Positions 12,456-37,016 of a stretch of DNA of 64,000 nt are shown one piece after another. Origin of the DNA: Escherichia coli (GTDB taxonomy: Bacteria; Pseudomonadota; Gammaproteobacteria; Enterobacterales; Enterobacteriaceae). The stretch lies in NCBI RefSeq assembly GCF_029227855.1, contig NZ_CP074356.1. The stretch is one strand, 5' to 3'. The notes beneath the pieces were generated by a model. That model did not search any database. It was not told where the DNA came from and was given only the letters and a program-made list of their open reading frames with translations. A program made the position numbers and the translations under genes. Each line of letters begins with the position of its first letter. The stretch's first letter is position 1.

Positions 12456-13406
12456 TTACAGCCAGTTCTTGCGCTTAAAGTACAGATACGGTGCCAGGCC
12501 CGCGAGGATCATAAAGATAATCGCGCCTGGGTAGCCGAAACTCCACTTCAGTTCTGGCATAAACTCAAAGTTCATCCCATAGCTGGAAGCAACGAGCGTC
12601 GGCGGCAGGAATACCACGGATACCACCGAGAAGATTTTGATGATGCGGTTCTGCTCGATGTTGATAAAGCCCATCGCCGCCTGCATCAGGAAGTTCACCT
12701 TCTGGAACAGGGATTCGTTATGCGGCAGCAGGGATTCGATATCTCGCAGGATTTCACGCGCCTGCTCCAGTTGCCCACCCGGTAAACGCGCCTTGCGTAC
12801 CAGGAAGTTGAGCGCACGCTGGGTATCCATCAGACACAGGCGAACTTTCCAGCCGATATCTTCCAGTTCCGCCAGCGTGGAGAGCGCCTCATCGTACTCA
12901 TCGCCCTGATGCCCTTCCATAATTACCCGGCTCAACTGCTCCAGATCGCTGTAGATATTTTCAATTTCATCTGCCAGCTGTTCGATTTTGGTTTCGAACA
13001 GATCCAACAGCAGCTCGTAGGCGTTACCGTCCACCATTGACTGGCTACGGGCGCGCATACGATACAGACGGAATGCAGGCAGTTCACGCTCACGCAGAGT
13101 AAACAGACGACCATCACGGATGGTAAATGCCACAGTGGAGTTACCGGCGTGATCTTCCGCATCTTCAAAGAAGAAGAAGGAGTGAATATGCAGGCCGTCA
13201 TCGTCTTCAAAGAAACGTGCCGATGCTTCGATGTCTTCCAGTTCCGGGCGGGTTGCCAGGCTCTGGCCAAGTTCAGATTGTACGCGCAGTCGCTCGTCGT
13301 CGTCCGGTTCGACAAGATCAATCCATACTGCATTTACAAGGGGTTGTGACTCTTCGACTTCCAGCCGGGTCAGTCGGTTATTTTCCAGTTGAAATGCGCT
13401 CAGCAT
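12456..13406 (-). CDS. corA: Mg2+/Co2+ transport protein CorA
   Basis: 316 aa from [12 protein letters not shown]; C-terminal TM helices with the YGMNF signature (GMN motif). Confidence 0.93.
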
Positions 13407-16932: not shown

Positions 16933-17649
16933 TTATATCAGCGAGGTCAGAGATGCCAACCGGGAAATTTCCAGATGCGGCAGTAAACGGCTGTCCCAGG
17001 TTTGCATCAGATCGCCATTTTCCGGTCTGATCCAACAAGCCTGCATTCCGCTGCGAATTGCCCCACCCACGTCAGTGGTGAGATCGTCCCCAACATGTAA
17101 GATCTCGCCGATCGGCACGTTGAGTTTTTCCGCAGCCAAAAAGTACATATCGCTGAACGGTTTTGAGCGCCCGTGCGGGCCAGCGCGCAGCACAAACTCA
17201 AAATAATCCCCCAAACCAAACAGTTCCGGCTGGGCGTTACCGTTGGTGATCGCCACCAGCGGCCATTTCTTCGCCAGCTGTTTTAAGGTGTCGTGAGTTT
17301 GCTGCGGGACGTCGATTCGGCTGCGCCATTTGGCAAAGTTAATCATTGCTGCGTGTGCGCCTGCACTGGCTTCTTCGGCACTCAGCCCGGCGTCGAGCAT
17401 CGCTTGTTCAATCGAACGAAAACGCCAACGCGTCACGTCGTGATAAATCTCGGGTTCCGCTTCCCGTACCGCCTGGCGCAGGCGTTGCAGATCTTCATTC
17501 TGGAAGCTGCGCAGCGCCGGATGATAATTTTGCACAAAGGTAAGCGCCTCTCGCTCGGTGCGCAAAATCACCGGACGGTTATCGTAAAGGGTATCATCCA
17601 GGTCAAAGGTGAGCGCCGAGATGCGCCCCAAAGGCCGGTAAAAACGCAT
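16933..17649 (-). CDS. yigB: HAD-family hydrolase (FMN phosphatase-type) YigB
   Basis: 238-aa ORF with HAD motif I ([11 protein letters not shown]); last gene of the dapF-yigA-xerC-yigB operon. Confidence 0.85.
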
Positions 17650-18545
17650 TATTTCCCCCGTTTGGCGCGTGGATGCGCCGCATCGTACACCGAGGCAAGG
17701 TGTTGAAAATCAAGATGAGTATAGATTTGCGTGGTGGAGAGGTTGGCATGACCCAGCAGCTCCTGCACACCACGAAGATCGCCGCTCGACTCCAGCATAT
17801 GCGTAGCGAACGAGTGACGTAATTTATGTGGGTGAACGTGATTATTCAGCCCTTGTTTTATGCCCCATTCGGCAAAGCGTTTCTGCACATTACGCGCGGA
17901 GATACGCTTGCCCAGTTTCGACAGAAAAAGCGCGTCGTCTTCGCTACCAAACAGGTCGCGCAAATCAAGCCAGTGCTCAATCCACGCCACAGCGTTGCGA
18001 CCAATCGGCAGGCGGCGCTCTTTGCTGCCTTTCCCCATTACCCACACTTCACCAGACTCCAGGTCGAGGTGTTTGATATCCAGCCCCACCAGCTCGGAAA
18101 GACGCAGACCCGCGCCGTACATCACTTCCAGCATTGCACGGTCGCGTACAGCGAGGGGATCGTTGATATCAATATCCAGCAGCCGATTCATATCGTCGAC
18201 GTCGATGTTTTTCGGCAGATGACGCGGCGCTTTCGGTGCCGAAACTCCTTTCGCCGGGTTAGCTTTGAGTTCGTTCTGGCTGACCAGCCAGTCAAAAAAG
18301 CTACGTAGCGCAGAAAGCCGTAACGCGAGGCTTGCTGCTCCCAGCCCTTTACGGCGACTGCGTACAGCAAAATTGCGCACCATCGTCACATCACATTGCT
18401 GCCAGCTTTGCAGGCCGTTTTCGCTGGCAAAATTGATGATCGCCTCAAGCTGACGCTGGTAGTTAAGCAGGGTTATCGGGCTAAGCTGGCGCTCCACGCT
18501 CAGATAACGTAGGTAGCGTTCTACATCGGTGTGTAAATCGGTCAT
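17649..18545 (-). CDS. xerC: site-specific tyrosine recombinase XerC
   Basis: 298-aa ORF with the catalytic region [12 protein letters not shown]...[16 protein letters not shown]; overlaps neighbours by 1-4 bp. Confidence 0.92.
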
Positions 18546-19249
18546 ACGCGTTCAATCCAACGCTCCAGAAGCTCCGGCAACATCAGCGCAATTTCATGAA
18601 GTAACTGCGTTCCTTGCCCTTGTTGATAGTGACTGGCATCGCGACTGGTAAACAGCACGACACCCAAATCAGCATCGCTTCCCAGCATCGACATCGCCAC
18701 CGATCCCACCGCTTTCGCTTCCGGTAGCACCACCAGCAGCTCTGGTCCGTTAAGCGGCCCAAGATAGTGCTGTTCCTGCCCCAAACGCTGAATACGCAGC
18801 GGTTCGAAAGACTGACGGCTTAATGCCAGATGAGTGTGGTTCGACGGCGCACCTAAGCGCCAGCGATCCGGAAACAGGCGCAGACTCGCACCTGCCAGGC
18901 CGAGATCGCGCGCCCAGCGGTGAAAGCGCATCAGCATATCGTCGAGACTGCTGGCGGCGGTGAGACTGCGCTGCAGGTAGAGTAGGCGATAAAACAGGCC
19001 TTCGTTGGCGATAGCCTGTTCCATCAACAGCGCCATGTTCTCTTCCAGAACATGAATATGATTACGTGCGCGGGCCATGTGCCACTCGACCAACGAAACG
19101 GTGCCGCGTACCGGATGCGGCACACGTATCGCTTCTACTGCGCGCGCATTACGGATAAAAAACTCAGGATTTTTAATCAGATAATCGACAACCGCCCGGT
19201 CATCAAGCTCCGTGAGTGTTTCCTGCAGTTCTTCCCCTGGTTGCTTCAT
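18542..19249 (-). CDS. yigA: DUF484-family protein YigA
   Basis: 235-aa ORF between dapF and xerC with 4-bp overlaps (operon). Confidence 0.85.
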
Positions 19250-20070
19250 AGATGAATAAATCCGTCGTAGACATGTACCGCCGGGCCAGTCATATATAAC
19301 GGGTGACCCGGACCTTTCCAGGCGATATCAAGACGACCGCCGGGGAGTTCCACGCGTACTTCTTCGGCCAGCAAACCTTGCTGAATCCCTACTGCAACCG
19401 CCGCACACGCGCCGCTGCCGCAGGCCTGGGTTTCTCCTGCCCCACGCTCATAAACGCGTAAACGAATATGCTCGCGCTTAACCACTTGCATAAAACCGAT
19501 ATTGGCTCGCTCCGGAAAACGCTCGTGGCTTTCCAGAACAGGACCAAGCGTTTCTACCGCCGCGGTATCGACATCATCGACCTGAATCACGCAATGCGGA
19601 TTTCCCATCGACACCACGCCGCATAAGATTGTCTGCTCGGCGGCGCGCATAATATAGGTCTTTTCCGCTTTGTTAGCGCGAAACGGCACGGCGGAAGGTT
19701 CGAAGTTGGGTTCGCCCATATTTACGCGGACCAGATCATCATCGGTGACGGTCAGAACCATCCGCCCGTTGGCGGTGCTGACGCGGATATCGCGCTTATT
19801 GGTCAGCCCTTTCAGACGCACAAAACGGGCAAAGCAGCGCGCACCATTGCCGCACTGCGCCACTTCACTGCCATCAGCATTGAAAATGCGATAGTGAAAA
19901 TCCAGTTCAGGATCATACGGCGGCTCAACCACCAGCAGTTGGTCAAACCCTACTCCCAGGTGCCGATCAGCCAGGCGACGAATCAGCTCCGGTGAAAAAA
20001 AGACATTCTGCGTTACCGCGTCGACGACCATAAAATCGTTGCCAAGGCCATGCATTTTCGAGAACTGCAT
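19246..20070 (-). CDS. dapF: diaminopimelate epimerase
   Basis: 274 aa from [19 protein letters not shown] (GNDF motif) and catalytic Cys motif GNGARC. Confidence 0.92.
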
Positions 20071-20106
20071 CATTTACTCCAATCACGCGGGTACAGAAAC
20101 TGACTT

Positions 20107-20310
20107 TTAGTAATTCACCTGGGATGGACCATCGCCAGTGGCGCGATCGTTTTTATCCGGCACCGTGGATTGCGTTTGCGTCTCTACCGGTTTGGTCGGC
20201 GGCGGTGCGTTTTTATCTGCAGGCGGGAAATAGAGCGGACCTTTCAGACCGCAGCCCGTCAGGCTGAAGAGAGTAAGTAATACAGTGAGTGCCTTAAACA
20301 CGTTTTTCAT
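20107..20310 (-). CDS. yifL: small lipoprotein YifL
   Basis: 67-aa ORF with lipobox LTGC after a signal peptide (MKNVFKALTVLLTLFSLTGCG); immediately upstream of dapF. Confidence 0.8.
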   Translation of the reverse strand: MKNVFKALTVLLTLFSLTGCGLKGPLYFPPADKNAPPPTKPVETQTQSTVPDKNDRATGDGPSQVNY

Positions 20311-20772
20311 TATGGATTGCCTGTAAAGTTCATCGCTTTCTGCTTTCTATCATCGCAGGAGAAGACGTAAAAGCAAGCGTTTAGCGACTCTTTATGAAGT
20401 CTGAAAAGTGAGGAAATGCTGCGAGTATAACGCTTACTCGTGGGGATTTATGTTTTGCTGGTAGTTTCGTGATCGGCACCTCGCGCCAGGATGGCTTTAT
20501 GCACTATCGCAATGTAGTTTGTTTGTTGGCTTTTTTAGTTCCGTCAGCGTGAGGATGCTCGCTCGGTAAACCTGATCATAATGTTTACCAGAAACAGGGA
20601 AAGGCGTGGTGTAACTGCGCCCTAATGAAGAGACAAATCTTTCGCTACACTGAGACATCATTATTCCGGTGACGGATGAATCGTGCCGGAACGCAGCCGC
20701 AGAGGTGCAAACTTTGAAGCCCTGACCCCATGCCGCTATACTGCCGCCATCACTTAAAAACAGGATACAACA

Positions 20773-21093
20773 ATGAACGACAGTGAATTTCATCGCCTGG
20801 CTGATCAACTCTGGCTGACCATTGAAGAACGCCTGGACGACTGGGATGGCGACAGCGATATCGACTGCGAAATCAACGGCGGCGTACTGACCATTACCTT
20901 TGAAAACGGCAGCAAAATCATTATTAACCGCCAGGAGCCGCTGCACCAGGTGTGGCTGGCAACCAAACAGGGCGGCTACCATTTTGACCTAAAAGGCGAT
21001 GAATGGATTTGCGATCGCAGCGGCGAAACCTTCTGGGATTTGCTGGAACAGGCGGCGACACAGCAAGCGGGTGAAACAGTCAGTTTCCGCTAA
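20773..21093 (+). CDS. cyaY: frataxin homolog CyaY (iron-sulfur cluster assembly)
   Basis: 106-aa acidic [36 protein letters not shown]...; matches CyaY. Confidence 0.9.
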
Positions 21094-21132
21094 GATTGCA
21101 TGCCGGATAAGCCTCGCTTTCCGGCACGTTCA

Positions 21133-23679
21133 TCACGAAAAATATTGCTGTAATAGCGGCGTATCGTGATCCTGATTGGCAGGCGGCATGTTACCGATAG
21201 ATTTTGTGCGGAACGGAATCACCTGTTCACGACCATCAACCTTCACAATCTGATAGAACTGCGGCAGGTTGAAGTTGATGAAGCTTGAGCCGTAGGTGAA
21301 GCGGTCGTGCGATGACGAGTAGAAGCGACTGACGTCACGCACCAGTTCCTCTTTGCTGCCTTCGCAGTGGTGATACACCTCAACCCGGTTGCTTTCGTCG
21401 AGAATGTAGATATTAAAGCCATTCTCGTCTTGCGTTTCTTCGAAGAAGAACTGGATGATCCCTTCACTAGCAAAGCCGTCCACCACCGCCGGTAATTTGA
21501 CGTGATTGGTTTCAACCTGCACTGACAAGCCGTGCAGTTTGTTATGCGAAATAGCGCCATAAAACTCGATGGCGTTTTCCAGTTTTTGTACCGATACATT
21601 CAGGCGTTCGAAGAACAACCCCCAGGTTTGACCAGAAACGCGCAGCGCCTTGAAACGCCCGGTTTCCTGGCGGGTGCTGGAAAGGCGCAGTTCAATACAC
21701 TCAGAAACCAGTTGCTGCACGCGAGTACGGATTAACCCGCGCAGATGCTGGCTATAACAGAAGACTTCCACGCTATCTGGCGGTGCGGCGTCCTGATGCA
21801 TTTTGCCGAGAATAGTTTTCAGGGCTTCGATCATCGATTGCTCGCCGTTGAAGTGCAGCGTACGCACTTCGTTCCACGAGTTGCGGTACAGCAGGTCAAC
21901 GCTACCTACCAGGCAATTTTGATTCTCGCCAAAGCTGAAGACATCCAGCTTACGGAAATCAAAATGCACCACCTGATTGCGGAACGCCGCTGTCGGGTCA
22001 TATTCCAGGTTAACGATAATCGCCAGATGGCGGATCTCACACGGGCTGTAGAGCGCCTTCGGTGTCGGTGCAGGTAAGCGCAGCGGGAAATGGTGCGACA
22101 CGTCGGCGACCATCTCCTGCAACTTAGGCAAATCGACAATGCCGTTACCTTTAATATACAAACGGGTGCGCGAGGTCAGCAGGCCGTTAAACCATGCCCA
22201 CGCCACCAGTTTATTCAGGTAACGGTTATATTCCAGCGGCTGATGGCTGATGATCGACTCAATATTTGGCGCGCGGTTATACAGATACCAACCTGAACGG
22301 TTAGCACGGCCCGGCGGCACATAAATAAAGGTCAGATTCGGTTCCGAGAGATCGGGTGAAATCTGCGGGTTTACCAGCGTCACTTTACCTGGTAATGCTT
22401 CAAACGCGGCATACAGCTTACGCGTCAGCACGCCGATATCCTGCGGACTGGCGGAGACGCTAAGGTTATTGCGACGCGCAAAGCGGATCAGATTACGGTA
22501 GCTCTGCATCATCGCGTCGAGCAACTCGTTGTGCGCCTCACGCACCTGATCAATCTTCCAGTTAGCGCGGTTATCGAGCATTGCCAGACGAGCTTCGTCC
22601 CAACCCCACTCGCTCACTAACTGGCTCAACACTGCGCGACGCCAGCCTACGCAGGCGCGTTCACGGCTGAGCTTTTCGCACACTTTTAAATAGAAGCAGC
22701 GACGTACTAAATCCAGACGGGTAAAATCTTCAATCGCCGTCAGGTATTCAGTAACACGCTCCAGCATCATGCAGTATGGATCGAGACCAAACGATACAAT
22801 CTCGCCGTCGTGCAAACGCTGTTTGATATCTTTCGCCAGCAGACGTGGGTTCGGGTATTCCCAGGAATAGGCTTCCAGCAGCAGTGTTTTCAGTACCGCT
22901 TTGTATGGGGAATCGATACTCTTGTAGAGCTGCCAAAGGCTGGCACCAAAGTACTCTTCAGCAGAAAGCGAGCTTAAGCCACCGAGATCCAGCCATTCAT
23001 TTGGCGTCAGCACGCCCTGCGCGTAAAGCGTCATCACATAGTCGTCGTAATGCTCTTCTTCGTCGCACGGCACCATATTCCACAGAATACGCTTACCGGC
23101 GAGACGCACGGCGGTACGATAAAATTCGTCAAGCAGCAGTATATGCTGGGTGGAGCCACAATCTTCGCCCCCCAGGCTGCCGCTTTCATTATGACGGAAG
23201 CGGTTTTCATCAATCAGGAAGAAGCTGACTTCCACACCCAGCGAGGCGGCCCAGCTTTCCAGCAGACTACATTTACGTTGTAGTAACTGGCGCTCTTCGC
23301 TATCGAGCCAGGATTGATGACAGACCCAGATATCCAGGTCAGAGGAACAACTTTGCCCTACGGACGAGGTGCTGCCCATGGTGTATACACCAGTAATTGG
23401 AAGCTCACCTTTCGGTGGGTCCTGTACTGACATTCCACGATACAGTTCAAGCTCGTTCAGGTAGTGGCGTTGAGTTTCATCAGGCGTGTAAAGGCAAATG
23501 CCTTTGGGAACGTTACCATCAAGGTAACCCGGCATTAGCGGATGGTGATAGTGCAACAATGTCGGCAGTAGACTGTAGACCTGTTGGAATGCAGGCCCCA
23601 TAGCAGCAAGCGCGCGATCCACACGCAATTGATTTATGGCATCCAGTCTCTGTTTCAGAGTCTCAATATAGAGGTACAA
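21133..23679 (-). CDS. cyaA: class I adenylate cyclase
   Basis: 848-aa [21 protein letters not shown]...; the initiation codon read from the sequence is TTG (complement of 23677..23679). Confidence 0.93.
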
Positions 23680-24065
23680 GACGTATCGCCTGATTTGCTA
23701 CCCGTCATGACTGTGATTCCGCCAACATCAACGGTAACACGCGGCATTCGGGATATTTCGTATGTCAAAGGTAACCGTTACCACTTTTCGCGCCTGGTTT
23801 TTTTAGTTTCACGACGAAAAAATGGTCTAAAACGTGATCAATTTAACACCTTGCTGATTGACCGTAAAGAAAGATGCGCTACATACAAGTGTAGCACCGT
23901 TTATTCTCTGTAAATTCCTTATTACGACGGCGTGAAACGCCTGTCAGGATCCACTGCCAGACCTCATTTTACGGTTTGCGCAGGCGTCTACGTTTCACCA
24001 CAACACTGACATCACTCTGGCAAGGATGTTAGGATGGACCACGGATGATAATGACGGTAACAAGC
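23680..24065. promoter_or_regulatory. cyaA-hemC divergent promoter region
   Basis: 386-bp non-coding interval between divergent starts; individual promoter and CRP sites not resolved by eye. Confidence 0.35.
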
Positions 24066-25007
24066 ATGTTAGACAATGTTTTAAGAATTGCCACACGCCA
24101 AAGCCCACTTGCACTCTGGCAGGCACACTATGTCAAAGACAAGTTGATGGCGAGCCATCCGGGCCTGGTGGTTGAACTGGTACCGATGGTGACGCGCGGC
24201 GATGTGATTCTTGATACGCCGCTGGCGAAAGTAGGCGGAAAAGGCTTATTTGTAAAAGAGCTGGAAGTCGCGCTCCTGGAGAATCGCGCCGATATCGCCG
24301 TACATTCAATGAAAGATGTGCCGGTTGAATTCCCGCAAGGTCTGGGGTTGGTCACTATTTGTGAGCGTGAAGATCCTCGCGATGCCTTTGTGTCCAATAA
24401 TTATGACAGTCTGGATGCGTTACCGGCAGGCAGTATCGTCGGGACGTCCAGTTTACGTCGCCAGTGCCAACTGGCTGAACGCCGCCCGGATCTGATTATC
24501 CGCTCCCTGCGCGGCAACGTCGGCACTCGCCTGAGCAAACTAGATAACGGCGAATACGATGCCATCATTCTTGCCGTAGCCGGACTAAAACGTTTAGGTC
24601 TGGAGTCCCGCATTCGCGCCGCGTTACCACCCGAGATTTCTCTTCCGGCGGTAGGACAAGGTGCAGTCGGTATTGAATGCCGCCTTGATGATACGCGCAC
24701 TCGCGAGCTGCTTGCCGCGCTGAATCACCACGAAACTGCACTGCGCGTTACCGCAGAACGCGCCATGAATACCCGTCTCGAAGGTGGATGTCAGGTGCCA
24801 ATTGGTAGCTACGCCGAGCTTATTGATGGTGAAATCTGGCTGCGTGCGCTGGTCGGCGCGCCGGACGGTTCGCAGATTATTCGCGGTGAACGCCGCGGTG
24901 CGCCGCAAAATGCCGAACAAATGGGGATTTCGCTGGCAGAAGAGCTACTGAATAACGGCGCGCGCGAGATCCTCGCTGAAGTCTATAACGGAGACGCCCC
25001 GGCATGA
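24066..25007 (+). CDS. hemC: porphobilinogen deaminase (hydroxymethylbilane synthase)
   Basis: Start at [20 protein letters not shown] gives 313 aa; first gene of hemCDXY. Confidence 0.92.
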
Positions 25008-25744
25008 GTATCCTTGTCACCCGCCCGTCTCCCGCTGGAGAAGAGTTAGTGAGCCGTCTGCGCACACTGGGGCAGGTGGCCTGGCATTTTCCGCTGATTG
25101 AGTTTTCTCCGGGTCGACAATTACCGCAACTTGCTGATCAACTGGCAGCGCTGGGGGAGAGCGATCTGTTGTTTGCCCTCTCGCAACACGCGGTTGCTTT
25201 TGCCCAATCACAGCTGCATCAGCAAGATCGTAAATGGCCCCAACTACCTACTTATTTCGCCATTGGACGCACCACCGCACTGGCGCTACATACCGTAAGC
25301 GGACAGAAGATTCTCTACCCACAGGATCGGGAAATCAGCGAAGTCTTGCTACAATTACCTGAATTACAAAATATTGCGGGCAAACGTGCGCTGATATTAC
25401 GTGGCAATGGCGGTCGTGAGCTAATTGGGGATACCCTGACGGTGCGCGGTGCTGAGGTCACTTTTTGTGAATGTTATCAACGATGCGCAATCCATTACGA
25501 TGGTGCAGAAGAAGCGATGCGCTGGCAATCCCGCGAGGTGACGATGGTCGTTGTTACCAGCGGTGAAATGTTGCAGCAACTCTGGTCGCTGATCCCACAA
25601 TGGTATCGTGAGCACTGGTTACTACACTGTCGACTATTGGTCGTCAGTGAGCGTTTGGCGAAACTCGCCCGGGAACTGGGCTGGCAAGACATTAAGGTCG
25701 CCGATAACGCTGACAACGATGCGCTTTTACGGGCATTACAATAA
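25004..25744 (+). CDS. hemD: uroporphyrinogen-III synthase
   Basis: 246-aa ORF overlapping the hemC stop by 4 bp. Confidence 0.9.
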
Positions 25745-25765
25745 CTCTCATAACAGGAAGCCATA

Positions 25766-26977
25766 ATGACGGAACAAGAAAAAACCTCCGCCGTGGTTGA
25801 AGAGACCAGGGAGGCCGTGGACACCACGTCACAACCTGTCGCAACAGAAAAAAAGAGTAAGAACAATACCGCATTGATTCTCAGCGCGGTGGCTATCGCT
25901 ATTGCTCTGGCGGCGGGCGTCGGTTTGTATGGCTGGGGTAAACAACAGGCCGTCAATCAGACCGCCACCAGCGATGCCCTGGCTAACCAACTGACGGCAT
26001 TGCAAAAAGCCCAGGAGAGCCAAAAAGCCGAGCTGGAAGGCATTATTAAGCAACAAGCTGCACAGCTTAAGCAGGCGAATCGTCAGCAAGAAACGCTGGC
26101 AAAACAGTTGGATGAAGTCCAACAAAAGGTCGCCACCATTTCCGGCAGCGATGCTAAAACCTGGCTGCTGGCTCAGGCCGATTTTCTGGTGAAACTCGCC
26201 GGACGGAAGCTGTGGAGCGATCAGGACGTCACGACCGCTGCAGCGTTGCTGAAAAGTGCAGATGCCAGCCTGGCGGATATGAATGACCCGAGTCTGATTA
26301 CCGTTCGTCGGGCAATTACCGATGATATCGCCAGCCTTTCTGCAGTTTCGCAGGTGGATTATGACGGCATCATCCTTAAGCTTAATCAGCTTTCAAATCA
26401 GGTAGATAACCTGCGTCTGGCCGATAATGACAGCGATGGTTCGCCGATGGATTCCGACGGTGAAGAGCTTTCCAGTTCCATCAGCGAATGGCGTATCAAT
26501 CTGCAAAAAAGCTGGCAGAACTTTATGGACAACTTCATTACGATTCGCCGTCGTGATGACACCGCCGTACCGCTGTTAGCGCCAAATCAGGATATCTATC
26601 TGCGCGAAAATATTCGCTCTCGCCTGCTGGTCGCAGCACAAGCTGTACCGCGTCATCAGGAAGAGACTTATCGCCAGGCGCTGGAGAACGTCTCCACCTG
26701 GGTACGTGCTTACTACGATACTGATGATGCCACCACCAAAGCATTCCTCGACGAGGTGGACCAGTTAAGCCAGCAAAATATCTCGATGGATCTTCCGGAA
26801 ACCCTGCAAAGCCAGGCGATGCTGGAAAAACTGATGCAGACTCGCGTGCGTAACCTGCTGGCACAACCGGCAGCGGGGACAACGGAAGCTAAACCTGCAC
26901 CTGCACCTGCACCTGCACCTGCACCTGCACCTGCACCGCAAGGTGATACTCCGGCAGCCGCGCCGCAAGGAGAATAA
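25766..26977 (+). CDS. hemX: HemX membrane protein with coiled-coil and Pro-Ala repeat
   Basis: 403-aa ORF with an N-terminal TM segment, Q-rich coiled-coil region and a C-terminal (PA)n tract. Confidence 0.88.
26894..26929 (+). repeat. perfect hexanucleotide tandem repeat (CCTGCA)x6 inside hemX
   Basis: Six exact CCTGCA copies encoding [12 protein letters not shown], followed by a degenerate seventh unit. Confidence 0.9.
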
Positions 26978-26979
26978 CC

Positions 26980-28176
26980 ATGCTAAAAGTGTTATTACTC
27001 TTTGTTTTGCTGATTGCGGGGATAGTGGTTGGCCCGATGATTGCCGGTCATCAGGGTTACGTGCTGATCCAGACTGACAACTACAATATCGAAACCAGCG
27101 TCACGGGCCTGGCGATTATTTTGATTCTGGCGATGGTAGTGCTGTTTGCCATTGAGTGGCTACTGCGGCGGATCTTCCGCACAGGCGCACACACCCGTGG
27201 GTGGTTTGTCGGACGTAAGCGTCGCCGTGCCCGTAAGCAGACCGAACAGGCGCTGCTGAAACTGGCGGAAGGCGATTATCAGCAAGTTGAAAAGCTGATG
27301 GCGAAAAATGCCGATCACGCGGAACAACCGGTGGTGAACTATCTACTGGCTGCCGAAGCCGCGCAACAACGTGGTGATGAAGCACGCGCCAACCAACATC
27401 TGGAACGCGCAGCAGAGCTGGCCGGCAATGACACCATTCCGGTAGAAATCACCCGTGTACGTCTGCAACTGGCCCGTAATGAAAACCATGCTGCACGCCA
27501 CGGCGTGGATAAGCTGCTGGAAGTTACGCCACGCCATCCGGAAGTATTACGTCTGGCGGAACAGGCGTATATCCGCACAGGTGCATGGAGTTCTCTGCTG
27601 GATATCATCCCATCAATGGCGAAAGCCCATGTTGGTGATGAAGAACATCGTGCAATGCTGGAACAACAGGCATGGATTGGCCTGATGGATCAGGCGCGTG
27701 CCGATAACGGTAGTGAAGGTTTGCGTAACTGGTGGAAAAACCAAAGCCGGAAAACGCGTCATCAGGTAGCGTTGCAGGTGGCAATGGCGGAACATCTTAT
27801 TGAATGTGACGATCATGATACTGCCCAGCAAATTATCATCGATGGCCTGAAACGCCAGTACGACGATCGCCTACTGCTGCCGATTCCTCGACTGAAAACC
27901 AACAATCCGGAACAGCTGGAAAAAGTGCTGCGCCAGCAGATCAAAAACGTCGGCGATCGCCCGCTGTTGTGGAGCACACTGGGCCAGTCACTGATGAAGC
28001 ACGGAGAATGGCAGGAAGCATCGCTCGCCTTCCGCGCGGCGCTGAAACAACGTCCGGACGCCTACGATTACGCATGGCTTGCCGACGCGCTGGACAGACT
28101 GCACAAGCCGGAAGAAGCTGCAGCGATGCGTCGCGACGGTTTGATGTTAACGTTGCAGAACAACCCACCACAGTAG
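26980..28176 (+). CDS. hemY: HemY (TPR-containing inner membrane protein)
   Basis: 398-aa ORF with two N-terminal TM segments; last gene of hemCDXY. Confidence 0.9.
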   Translation: MLKVLLLFVLLIAGIVVGPMIAGHQGYVLIQTDNYNIETSVTGLAIILILAMVVLFAIEWLLRRIFRTGAHTRGWFVGRKRRRARKQTEQALLKLAEGDYQQVEKLMAKNADHAEQPVVNYLLAAEAAQQRGDEARANQHLERAAELAGNDTIPVEITRVRLQLARNENHAARHGVDKLLEVTPRHPEVLRLAEQAYIRTGAWSSLLDIIPSMAKAHVGDEEHRAMLEQQAWIGLMDQARADNGSEGLRNWWKNQSRKTRHQVALQVAMAEHLIECDDHDTAQQIIIDGLKRQYDDRLLLPIPRLKTNNPEQLEKVLRQQIKNVGDRPLLWSTLGQSLMKHGEWQEASLAFRAALKQRPDAYDYAWLADALDRLHKPEEAAAMRRDGLMLTLQNNPPQ

Positions 28177-28223
28177 TTCCTTCTCACCCGGAGGCAAGCA
28201 CCTCCGGGACCTTTCTGATGCAT

Positions 28224-28430
28224 AAAAAAACGCCTGCTCTTATTACGGAGCAGGCGTTAAAACAGGTCTGTATGACAACAAGTGGGTGCTTCACTCAACG
28301 TTGTGTCCATGGTGTCTGATGAGGCATAAGCGACATCTGTCAGTGGACGATAAGCACCGTAAACGGCTCTGCGTCATTCCGGAGTTTATGAGGCACTAAG
28401 GCGAACATAAGAGATGGAATGAGCATCTAC
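28224..28430 (-). ncRNA. glmZ: small regulatory RNA GlmZ (glmS activation pathway)
   Basis: Reverse-complement reads GTAGATGCTCATTCCATCTCTTATGTTCGCC...CCTGCTCCGTAATAAGAGCAGGCGTTTTTTT, matching GlmZ as I recall it, including the terminal hairpin and U-tract; about 207 nt. Confidence 0.85.
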
Positions 28431-28855
28431 CCGTTTATTATGCCACAGAGAATCGGGAAATAACATCCCTTAACACTTGTTATGAGATAATTCTGTAATC
28501 CTCTTTGCTTCCTGAGTAATAACTTCCTGAGTGAATATTTAACCTGAGCTTGATCCTACACATACTTATTATGAATGATAAAATTCATTCAATTAATAAC
28601 ACATATATTAATTGCCGTTAAAACTAAAAAAAAGCATCAATAATCAACGCGATATAATAAACCTGCCTTACATATCAACTGCGCCAGAGGTAGGATTGAA
28701 AACGCTCTCCTGATTTTCCAATTCATTTTCTGGATAAATAAATAATTTATTTTTGTCACTATTATTTATGTAATCATCCTGTCAAGGAGAGGGATCTCAA
28801 TTATCAATGCTTAATTACGTCATCATTTTGATGACATGAAACCGGAGCATTTTGC

Positions 28856-29020
28856 ATGGAATTTTCGTTTTCACCCAAACTTTTTGTTGTTGCTGTCGCC
28901 GCCGCTCTTCCTCTCATGGCCAGCGCAGCAGATACCCCGTCAACTGCCACCGCACGCAAAGGCTTTGCCGGATACGATCACCCAAACCAGTATCCACAGA
29001 ACGCTGCAATTTATTGAATT
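28856..29020 (+). pseudogene. 5' remnant (about 54 codons) of a secreted-protein gene, probably arylsulfatase aslA
   Basis: ATG at 28856 encodes [46 protein letters not shown]... (signal peptide with ASA cleavage motif), then runs into REP sequence and stops; synteny predicts a ~550-aa aslA here but only about 670 bp separate glmZ from aslB. Confidence 0.5.
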
Positions 29021-29030
29021 TGCACGATCA

Positions 29031-29069
<39 letters not shown>

Positions 29070-29100
29070 AACCGCAGGCGGCCACAAAATGGCCGCTTTT

Positions 29101-30336
29101 TTACTTATTCACCACCAGCAAATGTGCCTGCATAATGTCACTGGCCGGGCGACCGTGCGCCAGCAAATCAGCCATTGCTTTAAGATATGGCGGTAGATGG
29201 CGGAAATAACGCTGATACCCGGCACACAAATAATTCAGCCCCGGTTTGCCGCTGGCATCGAGCATGAAGCGGTGTTTCGGGCAGCCTCCCCAGCACGCTT
29301 TTAACACGTTACAACTGCGACACTGCGCCGGTAATTGCTTAAATTTATCTTCACCAAACACCTGCTGTTGCGGGGAATCGATCATTTCTGCAATTGTTTG
29401 CTGATGCATATTCCCCAGCCGATATTGCGGATAAACATAGTGATCGCAGGCGTAAACGTCGCCGTTGTGCTCAACAATCACCGAGCGCCCACAGGTTGGC
29501 TGATGATGGCAAACCGCACCCGGCGCACCGACAAAATTGGCAAACGCCCATTCGATATTCATCACGAAAATCTTGCCGACGTCGCGTTTGATCCAGTGGT
29601 CGAATATCGCCACCAGAAATTCACCAAATTCATCGGGGCGCACCGACCATTCCGTCAGTTCCCCCTGAATATCACCAGGCGCATGTAGTTTCAGTCCATC
29701 GCTGGCAGCTGTTTCATCAGCCAGGCGCTCGACCACCGGAATAAACTGGATGAATTCGACTCCCGCATCGCACAAAAAATCATAAACCTGCAACGGTTGC
29801 TGCGCGCTGGTGCGGTTGACGCAGACCAGCACGTTATAGTCGACATGATGTTTTTGCAGCAGCGTCAGGGCACGCATCACCAGCTTATGCGTTGGTCTGC
29901 CACCTTTGGTCACGCGATATTGATTGTGGATCTCAGCCGGACCGTCCAGCGATAACCCAACAAGAAAATGATTTTCTGCCAGAAATGCACACCATTTATC
30001 ATCGAGCAGCACGCCGTTAGTCTGGAAGCTGTTACTTATCTTCCTGCCAGCACCGTATTTCGCCTGTAACTTTACGGCACGGCGGTAAAAATCCAGCCCG
30101 AGTAACGTTGGTTCGCCGCCCTGCCAGGTAAAAGCCACTTCGTTTTGCGGTTCGCTGGCAGCGATATAGTGACGGACATACGCTTCCAGCGTGTCATCGT
30201 CCATATGCGTGACTGGCTTTTCGCGGTAAAGGGATTGTTTTTCGAGATAAAAACAGTAGTCACAGTTCAGATTACAATCGGAACCACTCGGTTTCGCCAT
30301 CACATGAAAAGCACGCGTTGGAACCTGTTGCAGCAT
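29101..30336 (-). CDS. aslB: anaerobic sulfatase-maturating enzyme homolog (radical SAM)
   Basis: Start at MLQQVPTRAFHVMAKPSGSDCNLNCDYCFY gives 411 aa; CxxxCxxC radical-SAM motif and C-terminal Cys clusters. Confidence 0.88.
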   Translation of the reverse strand: MLQQVPTRAFHVMAKPSGSDCNLNCDYCFYLEKQSLYREKPVTHMDDDTLEAYVRHYIAASEPQNEVAFTWQGGEPTLLGLDFYRRAVKLQAKYGAGRKISNSFQTNGVLLDDKWCAFLAENHFLVGLSLDGPAEIHNQYRVTKGGRPTHKLVMRALTLLQKHHVDYNVLVCVNRTSAQQPLQVYDFLCDAGVEFIQFIPVVERLADETAASDGLKLHAPGDIQGELTEWSVRPDEFGEFLVAIFDHWIKRDVGKIFVMNIEWAFANFVGAPGAVCHHQPTCGRSVIVEHNGDVYACDHYVYPQYRLGNMHQQTIAEMIDSPQQQVFGEDKFKQLPAQCRSCNVLKACWGGCPKHRFMLDASGKPGLNYLCAGYQRYFRHLPPYLKAMADLLAHGRPASDIMQAHLLVVNK

Positions 30337-30451
30337 GGTCACTCCTTGCCTGAAGTCATCCTTCAATACGTTAAGGGCGAAATCATACCGTGGGGCAATG
30401 AGTTATTACGGGCGTTTATTGCGAAGGGAGGGTGACGAAATGCACAGAAAA

Positions 30452-30476
30452 CAAAAAACCCCGCCGAAGCGGGGTT
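30452..30476 (-). terminator. intrinsic terminator of the tRNA operon
   Basis: On the - strand: hairpin CCCCGCTTCGGCGGGG followed by TTTTTTGTTTT, immediately 3' of tRNA-Pro. Confidence 0.7.
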
Positions 30477-30482
30477 CAAAAT

Positions 30483-30559
30483 TGGTCGGCGAGAGAGGAT
30501 TCGAACCTCCGACCCACTGGTCCCAAACCAGTTGCGCTACCAAGCTGCGCTACTCGCCG
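30483..30559 (-). tRNA. proM: tRNA-Pro (anticodon UGG)
   Basis: Reverse-complement CGGCGAGTAGCGCAGCTTGGTAGCGCAACTGGTTTGGGACCAGTGGGTCGGAGGTTCGAATCCTCTCTCGCCGACCA, with encoded CCA. Confidence 0.95.
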
Positions 30560-30600
30560 AAATACTGCTTTTTGAATTTTTAGTTCAATTCTTTAAAGTC

Positions 30601-30687
30601 GTGGTGCGAGGGGGGGGACTTGAACCCCCACGTCCGTAAGGACACTAACACCTGAAGCTAGCGCGTCTACCAATTCCGCCACCTTCG
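30601..30687 (-). tRNA. leuT: tRNA-Leu (anticodon CAG)
   Basis: Reverse-complement GCGAAGGTGGCGGAATTGGTAGACGCGCTAGCTTCAGGTGTTAGTGTCCTTACGGACGTGGGGGTTCAAGTCCCCCCCCTCGCACCA (87 nt, long variable arm). Confidence 0.95.
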
Positions 30688-30717
30688 CATTGTCACAACT
30701 TCTAATAATGGGGTGGC

Positions 30718-30794
30718 TAATGGGATTCGAACCCACGACAACTGGAATCACAATCCAGGGCTCTACCAACTGAGCTATAGCCACCACTACAAAT
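30718..30794 (-). tRNA. hisR: tRNA-His (anticodon GUG)
   Basis: Reverse-complement GGTGGCTATAGCTCAGTTGGTAGAGCCCTGGATTGTGATTCCAGTTGTCGTGGGTTCGAATCCCATTAGCCACCCCA, including the extra 5' G typical of tRNA-His. Confidence 0.95.
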
Positions 30795-30842
30795 CTTGTT
30801 ACGCGGTATTACTACCACCGCAGCTCAAGCGCCGGGACTAAA

Positions 30843-30919
<77 letters not shown>

Positions 30920-31021
30920 TTAGCGCCGTTGCGGGGGTGGATAATACGGACTTCCCACCCCTCTGTCTAGTCCCTTTTTAAATAAATTGCGCGTTTGGTT
31001 ACGGTTTGTGCGTTTTGCTGC

Positions 31022-32407
31022 TTATTCCTCCAGTTTATGCGCTTTCCCGTGGCGATTAAGGCCAAAAACTTTATAAATCGCCGTCACCGCCAGCATAAAG
31101 ATGATGCCAACAAACAGCGACATACGCGTATCTTCATTAAAGTACATGCCGATCAAAACGCAAATCAGGAATGCCATTGTTACGTAGTTGGCCCACGGGA
31201 ACAGGATTGAGCGGAACGGATGGCTGGCAATCGCCGCTTTATGTGCACGCCGAAAACGCAGCTGGCTTATCAATATCACAAACCATGGCACCATCCCCGG
31301 AAGCACGCTGGCACTGTAGACGTAGACAAACACACGCTGCGGATTGGGAATGATGTAGTTCAGGCATGAGCCAATTAGCAGAATAGCAATAGATACTGCC
31401 ACACCCGCAACTGGTACGCCGTGACGGGAAACTTTCGCCATCGCCGCCGGTAACTGACGGTTTTTCGCCAGTGCGTAGAGCATACGTCCGCAACTGTACA
31501 TGCCGCTGTTACAGCCAGAGAGCGCAGCCGTCAGCACCACAAAGTTGATAATGCCCGCCGCTGCGGTAATACCGATTTTGGCAAAAGTCAGTACGAACGG
31601 GCTGCCGTTGCTGCCAATTTCATTCCACGGGAAGATGGTGACGATAACGAAAATCGCGCCTACGTAGAAAATCAGGATCCGCCACAGCACTTTGCCTACG
31701 GCACTGCGCAGCGTCACCTGCGGATTCTTCGCTTCACCGGCAGTAATGCCAATCAGCTCCACGCCCTGGTAGGACGCCACCACAATACACAGCGCGGTCA
31801 GGAACCCTTTCCAGCCACCCGCAAAGAAACCGCCATGCTCTGTGAGATTGCTAAAACCAATCGACTGCCCGCCATTGCCAAAGCCAAAGAAAATCACGCC
31901 CAGGCCAATGACAATCATCACGATAATCGTGGTGACTTTGATCATCGCGAACCAGAACTCGATTTCGCCGTACAACCGCACCGCCGCCAGATTCGCCAAC
32001 GCCACCAGCGCCACTGCGATCAATGCGGGTATCCACTGCGCCATCTCCGGGAACCAGAACTGGACATAAACGCCAATGGCGGTGATTTCTGAGATCCCCA
32101 CGGCCATCCACATAAACCAGTAAGACCAGGCGGTGAGATAACCAAAGAACGGGCTCATATAACGATGCGCATAAACGGCGAACGAACCGGTAACCGGTTC
32201 GAGGAACAACATTTCGCCCATTGAACGCATGATGAAAAAGACGAATAGCCCGGCGATGATATAGGCCAACAATACGGATGGCCCGGCCCATTTCAAGGTA
32301 CTGGCGGCCCCCATAAACAGGCCGACGCCAATGGTGCCCCCCAGGGCGATGAGTTCGATATGTCGAGCTTCCAGCCCACGCTGTAGCTCTGGTTTGTTAT
32401 CTGCCAT
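31022..32407 (-). CDS. yifK: APC-family amino acid permease YifK
   Basis: 461-aa 12-TM ORF ([33 protein letters not shown]...); synteny next to the argX tRNA operon. Confidence 0.9.
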
Positions 32408-32541
32408 AAATCCTCGTGTTGTGTTTGCATGCTTTCCGGTGTTACCGGTTATCGTTATGGGTACATCGAGTGTTGCGAATGTTTTCGTAATTCAGGAGAA
32501 ATGGCAAATAAAGCATTAAAAATTTGAATGCTTTGTGTAAT

Positions 32542-32579
32542 AAAAAAGCAGACAGGCGACGGAGTGACCACTCCGTCGC
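32542..32579 (-). terminator. probable terminator at the end of the wec (ECA) operon
   Basis: Hairpin gcgacggag/ctccgtcgc; on the - strand followed after a short spacer by a T-run; just downstream of the wecG stop. Confidence 0.45.
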
Positions 32580-32597
32580 TTTACAAAGAGAGGAAAA

Positions 32598-33338
32598 TCA
32601 GAGGTTGCCGGTGTAGTGCCAGCGTAAATAACGCAGCAAACGAAGCTGACGCTTAATGCGGCTCGGCTGCGAAAGCAGGCGGTAGAGCCACTCCAGTCCC
32701 AGCGTTTGCCAGATTTTCGGTGCGCGTTTTACGTGACCGGTGAAAACATCGTAAGTCCCGCCAACGCCCATATACAGCGCATCTGGATGCACCAGACGGC
32801 AGTCGCGCATGAAGATCTCCTGCTTTGGCGATCCCATCGCAACGGTGACGATTTGCGCTCCGCTGGCATGAATGCGTTCAAACAGCGCCTGACGCTGCTC
32901 GGGTTTAAAATAACCATCCTGACTGCCAACGATATTCACATTCCACTGGTTGCGCAGTTTAGCTTCAGTTTTCGCCAGCACTTCAGGTTTACCGCCCACA
33001 AGAAATACCGGCGTCCCTTCTTTGCCTGCGCGCGCCATCAGCTCTTCCCAGAGATCAGCACCGGCAACGCGGGAAACCTGCGCCTGCGGGTACTTTTTAC
33101 GTACTGAACGTACAACGCTGATGCCATCCGCATATTTAAATTCGGCAGCGTTAATTAGCTCCCTGACCTCAGCATTATCTTCAATGGTCAGCATTTTTTC
33201 GGCATTAATGGCAACCAGCGTTCCCTGCTTAAGATGCCCGTCAGCAAACAGATAATCGAGGGCGTGCTGCATATCACGCCAACCAATCAACTGTAAGCCA
33301 CGCAGCGTATAGGTCGGTGCCATGGTGTTGTTATTCAT
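32598..33338 (-). CDS. wecG: UDP-N-acetyl-D-mannosaminuronic acid transferase (ECA)
   Basis: 246-aa WecB/TagA/CpsF-family ORF; last gene of the wec cluster. Confidence 0.9.
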
Positions 33339-33340
33339 TG

Positions 33341-34693
33341 TTATCCTTCAACCTGCGTCCGGAGCGATGATTTTGTACGTTTATGAATGAGTCCGGCGCT
33401 TTCAAAAAGCCAGTACAACAGTTTTGCGATCATCAGACATGCGCCGAAGACCACGATAAAAAAGACTACGCGTGAGACAAACGAATCCAGCCCTTCACGT
33501 GCCAGCACGATCATATTGAAGATCGCCCCAAAGCAGAAACTGTGCAATATCGCAGCCTTATAGCGATTAGTCTCGCGGTTGCCCAGCTCATACAGCCAGT
33601 CGAACCATTTGATGATCAGTCCAACCACAATCGCCCCGAGTGGGATGAACAACGCGCCGCCCATCACCACCAGTGAGCCTATAAGCGTAGGCGAGATCGC
33701 CAGTCCGGAGTGGTTATTCAGCACTTCCCAGGTAAAGTAGTTGGCTGAGTTCAGCACCATACTCGGGCGACCCGGCCACAGCCAGGAAGGGATAAAGACA
33801 TAGAAATCGCGGACAATTGGAGCCAGGCCCTGGAAGTCGATGTTGTCGTAGTTCTGCAACAGCAACGCCAGATTCTCCCATGGCGAGAAGGTGTCGCGAG
33901 TGAGATAGAGAAACGTATAGAACGCTTCATCGCCGCTCACATTCATTCCATAGCGTTTTAGCGCCAGCCAGAACATGCCCACAATCCCCAGCACGCCCGC
34001 CGCCGCCAGCATCCACAACGAAATCCAGCCGCGAATAATGCCAATAAACAGGAAGATAGCGAATGCGATGATGATATTGGCGCGAGTGCCGCCGACAATC
34101 ATATAAGTCAGCAAGCCAAAGGCGACCGTGCTGACGAGGAAAAACAGCCACGCTTTGCTATCCTGGCGCAGAAAGTAGACCACCAGCATCGCCGGGATGA
34201 AAAAGTAAAAGAAGCGTTTTAACGCCACGCCGGAGACTTCACTGGAGAAGATCTGACTGTAGGAGTTAAGCCGGAACAGCAAAAAGCCGTTGTGCATGAA
34301 GAAGATGCCGACGCTTACCAGCGCGATGCCCATCAGGATCACCCACGTAAGATTGGTCTCCACGCGATTCATGGTAAACAGCGGACGGCGCGGTACATCA
34401 GCAACGCGTTTGCGTAGGCGGGTTTTGTAGGTGACATAGTAAACCGCGTAGAAGCAGCCCGCAGAAAGCAACGCCTGCAACAAGATTTCTGGCGGCGCGA
34501 CACCAACATCAAAGCGAAATACCAGCACGCTGGTCAGCGGGAAGCCGAAGAAAAAGGTGAGCAAAAACAGCAATGAAAAGAAGACATTGAAGTTAAAGCG
34601 CACACGGCGAAACTCAAACCAGGTCAGCGTGGCAATAAACAGCGTGCAGAGCAGCCAGACCACAAACAGGCCACTGAATTGCAGCAGACTCAT
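33341..34693 (-). CDS. wzyE: ECA polymerase
   Basis: 450-aa polytopic membrane ORF; position in cluster. Confidence 0.9.
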
Positions 34694-35769
34694 GCGCCCT
34701 CCCCGGCGGCAATCGCCAACGCCCGCTGCCAGCCTTGTAGATAGTTAGGGCTAAAGAAGGCAATGGTGTTTTTATCCACCGACGCCAACTGGCGCTGCGC
34801 TTCACGCACAATATCCTCGTTGAGATCGTCGGTAGTAAACAGCACCGGCAAATGCTGTTCCGTCATATCCTGCCAGAACGGATTTTCCCGGTTAAGCACA
34901 CAAGGAATGCCCGCCTGAATCAGTAAGCAAAGCGTACCAATGCCCTGCTGGCGGGCAAAAATAAAGTAACCAAGATCGCACTGACGAAGTAGCGCCAGAT
35001 AGGCGTCAAATTCCAGTTTTTCGCTCAAAATTTGCAGATTTTCTTCGCTGAATAACTCCAGCCCCGCCTGACGAACTTCCTCAATGTACGCTTCGTTATT
35101 AGGCGGATATCCCATCGGCACCACCACTTTTACCGTATCGCCAAATTGCTGATGAACGGCGCACAAGGCAGCAATATGGTCATTGCTGCGGTCACCGGAG
35201 TTCCCCACCAGAATGGTCATTTTCCCTTCACGTTGCCGATCGTTCGCCATCGTATTGAGAGAAGGGTCCATCCGCGTCGGGAAGTACAGCAGTTCGCCCC
35301 GCACCTTTGGATGCGTTTTGGCAAAAAAGCTCAAATCGCCGCGGGTGGCAAATACACAGCCGACTCGCTTTTGCGCCAGGCGACGTAGTGGGTAAAAAAG
35401 CTTATATCTCAAGCCACTGGAAAGCTCATACAGGTCTGCCCCCCAGATATGCCAGAAAAACTGGCTGGGCTTAATGCCACCACTCAGCAGAGCCAGCCAC
35501 AGTGTGGGATTGAACTGACCGTGGAAGAAAAAACGCTGCTGACGGTTAGCTTTTGCTTTCGCGATGACCGCTTCCGCCAGCGATTTTTTCCCAGGGAAAA
35601 ATTGCACAGAAAGCGCCGGACAGCTATCACTTAAGCCGTCGTCCTTGCCAACAACCATAAACTCGCGCGCGTGCTCGCTCGTCGCAGCCAGCGCGTCATT
35701 GAAAAACCGCAAAACGGTTCGGTTATGGTGAGGGATATCCGATCCCAGTACGTGAATCAGTACAGTCAT
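34690..35769 (-). CDS. wecF: TDP-Fuc4NAc:lipid II Fuc4NAc transferase
   Basis: 359-aa ORF overlapping both neighbours by 4 bp; position in cluster. Confidence 0.9.
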
Positions 35770-37016
35770 GCCCGCCTACGCCAGAGTAAAAACACGCCAC
35801 AACAAAGAGAAAAATAGACGATATAAGTTGCCATATATGCCTGCGCCGCGCCCAGTGCACCATGCGCAGGGATTAGCCAGTGGGCAAATACCATCAATAA
35901 AGTGAACTGGCTGATTTCCGCCAGAATATAAAACCGCAATGACGCTTTGGCGATCACCAGATAACCAAAGACATAAGCGCCCACTTTTAACACATCACCC
36001 ACTAACTGCCAGGCAAAGAGATCGCGCATAGCGGTAAATTTATTCGACAACAGCAGCCAGATAGCAAAATCACGCAGCAGCCAGACGGTAAAACTCGCCG
36101 CCGCCACTGCCGGTAAGACGAATTTCAGCGATTTAACCACTTCCCGGGTGATATCGCGCTTTTCCGTTAGCCGCGACAACGTGGGCAGCAAATATACGCT
36201 GAACGATGCCGTAATAAATTGCAGGTAGGCATCGGAAATACTGCTCACCCCTTGCCAGATCCCCACTTCATCCCAGCTATACTGCGCCGCGAGCAGTTTA
36301 CGCATCATGATGTAAGCAACAGGCAAGGTCACCGACGTAATCAACGCCATGAGCGTAAATTTGCTCAACTGCCCTGCCAGACCGTTATCCCAGCTGGGTT
36401 TCAAATAGCTTAACGGGATGACACCACGTTTGATCAACATGATGGCGGCAGGAATTACCACCAGCGCGGGAATCAGCGCCAGACCCAGCAACGCCCCTTC
36501 ATAACCGCCCAAACGGTAACTGACGTAGTACGCGAGAACGCCAATCAAGCTGCCGACAATCAGCGATAACGCATTACCTGCGGCATCGCGAAAGCCTTTC
36601 ATCAGCGCCAGTAACAGGTTGCCCCAGGCGATCCCCATTTGCACCAGCGCCACTAAACGCACCAGCCCCTGATAGTCGGTATTACCAAACAATCCCTGGC
36701 TGATTGGCGCAGCTGCCAGCACAAAAACCAGCGCCATCAGCGTAGAGAAACCAAGTACCATCGCTGATGAAGTGCCGACCACGCGGCGCAGCTGTTGCGG
36801 ATTATCATGGTACTGGGCAACGTATTTGGTTACACCGTTAAAGATGCCAGCTCCGGCAAGCACGCCGAGCACGGTAATCAACTGGCGGAAATTTGCCGCC
36901 AGCCCAAGCCCCGCCGGACCAAATGACACAGCCAGCAACTTACCGACCAGTAACCCGGCACCAATCTTGACCAGTGTACTGGCCGCCGTCCACAAGGACG
37001 CTTTTGCCAACGACAT
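35766..37016 (-). CDS. wzxE: lipid III (ECA precursor) flippase
   Basis: 416-aa 12-TM-like ORF; position in cluster. Confidence 0.9.

Follow-up and report, generated by a model that had tools for sequence, protein, structure and literature searches.

The CCTGCA repeat at the 3' end of Escherichia coli hemX is the typing locus CVN014 and probably a near-neutral microsatellite

A perfect array of CCTGCA units lies near the 3' end of hemX in the stretch of E. coli DNA that we analyzed (64 kb, hereafter the window), and its primer sites and repeat unit identify it as CVN014, an already known MLVA marker. The array changes much faster than its flanks accumulate point substitutions. We conclude that it is very probably a hypermutable, in-frame hexanucleotide microsatellite, one whose effect on the length of the HemX C-terminal tail is nearly neutral.

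The array consists of exact units joined head to tail over 42 bp (Table 1), and this 42-mer occurred in none of 100 dinucleotide-preserving shuffles. Tandem Repeats Finder placed it at 26893-26937 (period 6, 7.5 copies, 100% matches) with a score of 90, the highest in the window. The same program reported two other tandem repeats, at 12708-12749 (period 21, 2.0 copies, score 56) and at 62872-62908 (period 15, 2.5 copies, score 60). The original prediction of a perfect CCTGCA array stands, but its count of six copies ending at 26929 does not: exact counting gives seven, ending at 26935. The array is in frame within the plus-strand open reading frame 25766-26977 and encodes (Pro-Ala)x7, residues P377-A390 of a 403-residue protein, after which 13 more residues precede the stop codon; the in-frame Pro-Ala coding near the C terminus, as first proposed, is thus borne out. 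So is the identity of the gene as hemX, by full-length agreement with NCBIfam NF008173 (720 bits, against a cutoff of 313) and by a match to Pfam PF04375 over residues 130-363 (361 bits, against a cutoff of 25.9).

Table 1. Features of the hemX-hemY region of the window that bear on the repeat.
Feature	Position	Strand	Basis
hemX coding sequence, 403 aa plus stop	25766..26977	+	ORF; NF008173; PF04375; RefSeq annotation of matching genomes
Codons of the HemX C-terminal tail, aa 367-403, Ala/Pro-rich, low-complexity, containing the repeat	26864..26974	+	Predicted model; alignment of 80 species
CVN014 'R' primer site GCAGCRGGGACAACGGAAGC	26870..26889	+	0 mismatches, unique in window (primer: PMC8143711 Table 1)
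(CCTGCA)x7 perfect hexanucleotide microsatellite, the variable core of CVN014, allele 7	26894..26935	+	Exact 42-mer; amplicon 153 bp; single pure run of 7
hemY Shine-Dalgarno AAGGAG within the last hemX codons (CAA GGA GAA = Q401 G402 E403)	26967..26972	+	Position; codon conservation
hemY coding sequence, beginning 3 nt past the hemX stop	26980..28176	+	ORF; NF008017, 830 bits
CVN014 'F' primer site TCCCCGCAATCAGCAAMACAAAGA, inside the start of hemY	26999..27022	-	0 mismatches, unique in window (primer: PMC8143711 Table 1)

The gene order hemC-hemD-hemX-hemY in the window agrees with the RefSeq annotation of syntenic regions. The closest annotated genomes (L099 and L100) carry, between hemY and aslB, only an annotated 138-bp arylsulfatase fragment (window ~28855-28993 by transfer) and, between lptM and cyaY, a frameshifted DKNYY-family pseudogene (window ~20469-20647 by transfer). 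RefSeq and NCBIfam name the hemX product uroporphyrinogen-III C-methyltransferase, whereas Pfam assigns a HemX domain only, and the Pfam search found no methyltransferase domain in the protein. The product name is a legacy suggestion, traced to 1988 (PMC2704936). According to a preprint, HemX is distantly homologous to Mic60 but lacks the mitofilin domain (bioRxiv 10.1101/2022.06.14.496148), and the Keio hemX deletion is viable with reduced gentamicin sensitivity (PMC12282077). None of these three points (product name, Mic60 relation, gentamicin phenotype) bears on tail length. HemX would span the inner membrane once (bitopic) and expose a helical domain in the periplasm; a sequence search for relatives of solved structure returned none below E = 0.47.

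CVN014 is a 6-bp locus of the generic E. coli MLVA, amplified with the primers listed in Table 1, its copy number being calculated as (product size - 111)/6 (PMC8143711 Table 1). In the window the two primer sites face each other and enclose the array, with a predicted amplicon of 153 bp. The formula then gives (153-111)/6, or allele 7, which is the number of copies counted, and it likewise returned the counted copies in 16 amplicons fetched from other genomes, spanning alleles 2-21. Because both primers match around the array and the formula recovers the counted copies, the array is CVN014: the two share both primer sites (each unique and without mismatch), the 6-bp unit, the 111-bp offset and high polymorphism, and we observed no difference between them at the DNA level. 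CVN014 belongs to the schemes GECM-7 and GECM-10, for which Lindstedt et al. 2007 and Lobersli et al. 2012 are cited (in PMC8143711 and PMC3877011). Among the loci of the generic E. coli MLVA, it has been reported as the most variable (PMC3877011) and as the most polymorphic (Nei index 0.83, 4-15 repeats; PMC3519732), and in a Swedish collection it varied more than any other locus (PMC5217547 Table 3). In the open literature that we searched, which does not include the original 2007 description, hemX and CVN014 are nowhere named together, and we found no relevant paper linking hemX with VNTR or MLVA.

To place allele 7 among other strains, we compared a 242-nt query around the array with 5,426 complete E. 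coli genomes. The locus was matched in 5,425, with match lengths differing from 242 by multiples of 6. (The hemX/hemY junction was not matched in the one remaining genome; it was matched at two places in at least one genome, and one place was on a plasmid.) Allele sizes were mostly derived from match lengths, with 20 alleles from other genomes read directly, and the collection is biased in that it contains many K-12 derivatives and outbreak clones. Copy numbers were summarized by two systematic 60-row samples of the 5,425 genomes and one cumulative count. The first sample contained 2 copies in 9 rows, 3 in 2, 4 in 4, 5 in 11, 6 in 11, 7 in 7, 8 in 5, 9 in 3, 10 in 2, 11 in 3, 12 in 1 and 13 in 1, and a deleted array in 1. 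The second, consisting of 60 evenly spaced rows from a synthetic 30-copy query that ranked genomes by array length, contained 2 copies in 10 rows, 3 in 2, 4 in 4, 5 in 9, 6 in 9, 7 in 6, 8 in 5, 9 in 4, 10 in 3, 11 in 2, 12 in 2, 13 in 1, 15 in 1 and 21 in 1, and a deleted array in 1. The samples agree closely (2-13 and 2-21 copies, with modes at 5-6 and at 2), and the Nei index from the quantile sample of the 5,425 genomes is ~0.89, compared with the published 0.83. Nine or more copies are present in 1,229 genomes (22.7%). The longest arrays among the matches listed have 25, 23 and 22 copies, so the range extends from 2 copies, as in K-12-type genomes (393-aa HemX), to at least 25.

Direct reading of the 20 fetched alleles shows how they differ. 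The tract is retained in 19, covering every value from 2 to 14 as well as 16, 20 and 21 copies; all are uninterrupted CCTGCA runs that differ from one another only in the number of complete, identical units and keep the same junctions. The exception is strain NCTC11023 (L083, NZ_LS483297.1:4601078-4601862), in which the array and the next five codons are deleted (...GCTAAACC joined directly to GGCAGCC...), the CVN014 'R' primer site carries a mismatch, and a 384-aa HemX is annotated as intact. All the fetched alleles have a hemX that is annotated as intact. The expectation that copy number varies between strains was therefore correct, both among the 5,425 complete genomes and on identical 20-kb backgrounds. 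We also looked for the opposite outcome, identical copy number in all relatives, and this clearly fails: relatives differ.

The comparison of near-identical backgrounds reveals how quickly these differences arise. Over 20 kb (window 17000-37000), the window and strain VCSW8 differ by 0 substitutions, yet they carry 7 and 14 copies, respectively; their sole differences are the 42 bp in the array and one A in an intergenic homopolymer. The latter is an extra A in the window at 28626 (A run ~28627-28634, between hemY and the arylsulfatase remnant) relative to both closest genomes, VCSW8 and GB089, and may reflect either genuine slippage or a sequencing error. Copy number ranges from 3 to 21 among the 60 genomes that share at least 99.8% identity with the window over the 20-kb flank. 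Sister isolates differ as well: ZH48 carries 16 copies and ZH49 carries 20, while in the pair SRY149 and SRY157 the numbers are 12 and 14. ST131 genomes have 5 and 8 copies, published alleles within this clone being 2, 3, 4, 5, 6, 7, 8, 10 and 11 (PMC3407997), and O111 strains have 12, 16, 17 and 22.

These results bear directly on the proposal that copy differences are old and fixed in each lineage, instead of being generated by continuing hypermutation. Short alleles do look stable: every K-12-type record in the samples carries 2 copies, and several sets from a single clone are uniform at 6 or 7. However, the doubling relative to VCSW8 on an unsubstituted background, the differences of 2 and 4 units between sister isolates, and the spread of alleles within ST131 and O111 make a stable lineage marker highly improbable, and for long alleles this reading is already contradicted. 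The uniformity of same-clone sets with 2, 6 or 7 copies, together with the frequent differences in sets with 12 or more, fits an instability that depends on array length, although this pattern is anecdotal and provides no rate estimate. Nor do the differences seem to originate in collapsed or expanded repeats in the assemblies. Some records are long-read-only assemblies, which would favor such an artefact, but the arrays (12-150 bp) are well inside read length, differences are always whole hexamers, and MLVA studies by capillary electrophoresis give the same range and the same top rank in variability (PMC3407997, PMC3877011, PMC5217547, PMC3519732). We regard the chance of a sequencing or assembly artefact as close to negligible.

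The position of the tract within the protein was evaluated with an AlphaFold model (mean pLDDT 60.5, moderate), built on HemX sequences from 80 Enterobacteriaceae species and used for the tail only. In this model the last helix comprises residues 348-365, and residues 367-403 form coil with pLDDT values of 33-38, so that this segment is predicted to be disordered. Across the 80 species, the segment past "...RNLLAQ" is rich in Ala and Pro and variable in both length and sequence, and only Q401, G402 and E403 are conserved. The QGE end is present in 79 of the tails, three of them with one extra Q, and CAA GGA GAR TAA is kept in 17 of the 17 tails printed as DNA. These conserved codons coincide with the hemY ribosome-binding site.

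The tract had been described initially as a linker. This description is not supported: the model shows instead a low-confidence, coil-like C-terminal tail, with just the 13 residues after the repeat. Because the last helix ends at residue 365 and no domain comes after the tract, the repeat is best regarded as part of a C-terminal tail. We considered an inter-domain Pro-Ala linker and rejected it, as no folded or conserved module is found 3' of the tract, and we also rejected the idea that a conserved C-terminal peptide turns the tract into a genuine linker, given that the only residues kept are those whose codons form the hemY ribosome-binding site. It is instructive to compare the tract with the OmpA hinge, the TonB spacer and the linkers of the E2p lipoyl domains, which are Ala-Pro-rich connectors of E. 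coli proteins. The HemX tract resembles them in its Pro/Ala-rich, extended, low-complexity composition. In contrast to the HemX tract, each of these connectors joins two folded or functional modules.

How, then, does the array change, and at what cost to the protein? Copy changes would arise by slipped-strand mispairing in replication. The unit contains the self-complementary TGCA, through which slipped-out units on either strand could form weak imperfect hairpins; the single-stranded array of seven units is predicted to fold at -6.8 and -8.2 kcal/mol, one value for each strand, as an imperfect hairpin of 4-bp blocks, and such hairpins may stabilize the slipped intermediates. Each step would lengthen or shorten the HemX C-terminal tail by one Pro-Ala dipeptide. 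The CCT GCA codon pair is not a preferred one, and the repetition of this single non-preferred pair points to an array that expands at the DNA level rather than by selection on the protein. HemX is presumably not exposed at the cell surface, which makes immune selection unlikely. Together with the range of 0-25 copies, found in natural and laboratory strains, and the natural deletion allele, these observations argue for a tail whose length is most likely nearly neutral.

The array has counterparts among known repeats. STTR5 and STTR6 of Salmonella Typhimurium are in-frame 6-bp typing VNTRs that, like the array, have a short unit, change by gain or loss of whole units, vary among SNP-identical isolates and serve as epidemiological markers (PMC5183578); they lie in a different gene and species, and no homology is implied. 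The contingency (phase-variation) loci of pathogens are also hypermutable simple repeats that lie in a gene and change by slippage. Unlike them, the array leaves the reading frame unchanged in every allele, does not turn expression on and off, and lies in a gene whose product is no surface antigen. With a unit length divisible by three, hemX is never switched off and no phase variation results. We therefore rejected a phase-variable contingency locus, on the basis of the 6-bp unit, the intact hemX at all fetched alleles and the lack of a promoter-like site, none having been found at the array.

Some evidence against neutrality comes from other Enterobacteriaceae. An Ala/Pro-rich HemX tail is present in every genus examined. 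In most genera it is written in mixed codons, as in Salmonella, Klebsiella, Enterobacter and the Citrobacter other than the three species named below. Pure CCTGCA/GCACCT runs occur within Escherichia (6 copies in E. albertii, 7 in L001 and L002, at most 2 in L003 and L004), and at the equivalent 3' site of hemX in three Citrobacter species, namely L017 (sp. NCU1), L019 (Awk 4) and L021 (R56), with 10, 15 and 14 pure copies, respectively. Either a shared proto-repeat expanded in parallel in Escherichia and Citrobacter, or elsewhere it stayed at a low copy number. The Citrobacter expansions and the retained Ala/Pro tail could thus reflect some selection for a Pro-Ala-rich tail, or simply a shared proto-repeat.

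These data, together with the description of HemX as a distant Mic60 homologue, are what favor a functional tuning of length, in which the Pro-Ala tract acts as a semi-rigid spacer whose length is selected because it determines how far HemX reaches in the periplasm or how active it is there, for example in a Mic60-like contact, so that changes in copy number would be adaptive: the tail is Ala/Pro-rich in 80 of the 80 species, and long expansions arose independently in Escherichia and in the three Citrobacter species. However, no preferred length is evident, as the tract ranges from 0 to 50 residues within one species and differs even between sister isolates, and the natural strain NCTC11023 lacks it altogether. 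Moreover, just 13 residues lie past the tract, their sole conserved part being the QGE of the hemY Shine-Dalgarno, and the repetition of one codon pair and the presumed absence of surface exposure weigh against selection on the protein. We consider functional length tuning unlikely. A more specific version, in which tail length sets the periplasmic reach of a Mic60-like inner-membrane protein and rapid copy change tunes an envelope or respiration trait, is in our judgment quite unlikely.

The proximity of the array to hemY raises a further possibility, namely that repeat length alters mRNA structure or translational coupling ahead of the hemY start and thereby tunes HemY. The hemY Shine-Dalgarno begins 31 nt 3' of the repeat end, and the hemX stop and hemY start are 3 nt apart. 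Yet partition-function folding with 0-25 copies gave the same unpaired probabilities in every case (0.00 for the Shine-Dalgarno and 0.64 for the start codon), and the repeat lies at a constant distance from the hemX stop. Neither a promoter-like site nor an Rfam family at gathering score was found at the array. Because the predicted accessibility of the Shine-Dalgarno and start is identical at 0-25 copies, we rejected control of hemY through RNA structure, and we consider any regulation of hemY by repeat length very unlikely. As a separate observation, the hemY Shine-Dalgarno (within window 26936-26982) is predicted to be fully paired at any repeat length. A Shine-Dalgarno that is both paired and encoded by the conserved QGE codons of hemX would make hemY translation depend on ribosomes terminating at hemX, which suggests hemX-hemY translational coupling.

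Near-neutral slippage thus remains the best explanation of the array, and the feature that was flagged from the sequence is an ordinary, known one, a long-used epidemiological marker, for which the prediction of variability between strains was correct. Our analysis adds some detail: it locates CVN014 within the C-terminal HemX tail that is predicted to be disordered, and it extends the allele range in complete genomes (0, 2-25) beyond that of the MLVA reports (PMC8143711, PMC3877011, PMC3519732, PMC5217547, PMC3407997). The description of CVN014 may also gain modestly from the natural deletion allele and from the Citrobacter expansions. New biology would follow only if tail length affects HemX function. 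The practical value of CVN014 is that of a fast-evolving typing marker and, because the array can double with 0 substitutions in 20 kb, CVN014 alone is a poor guide to relatedness.
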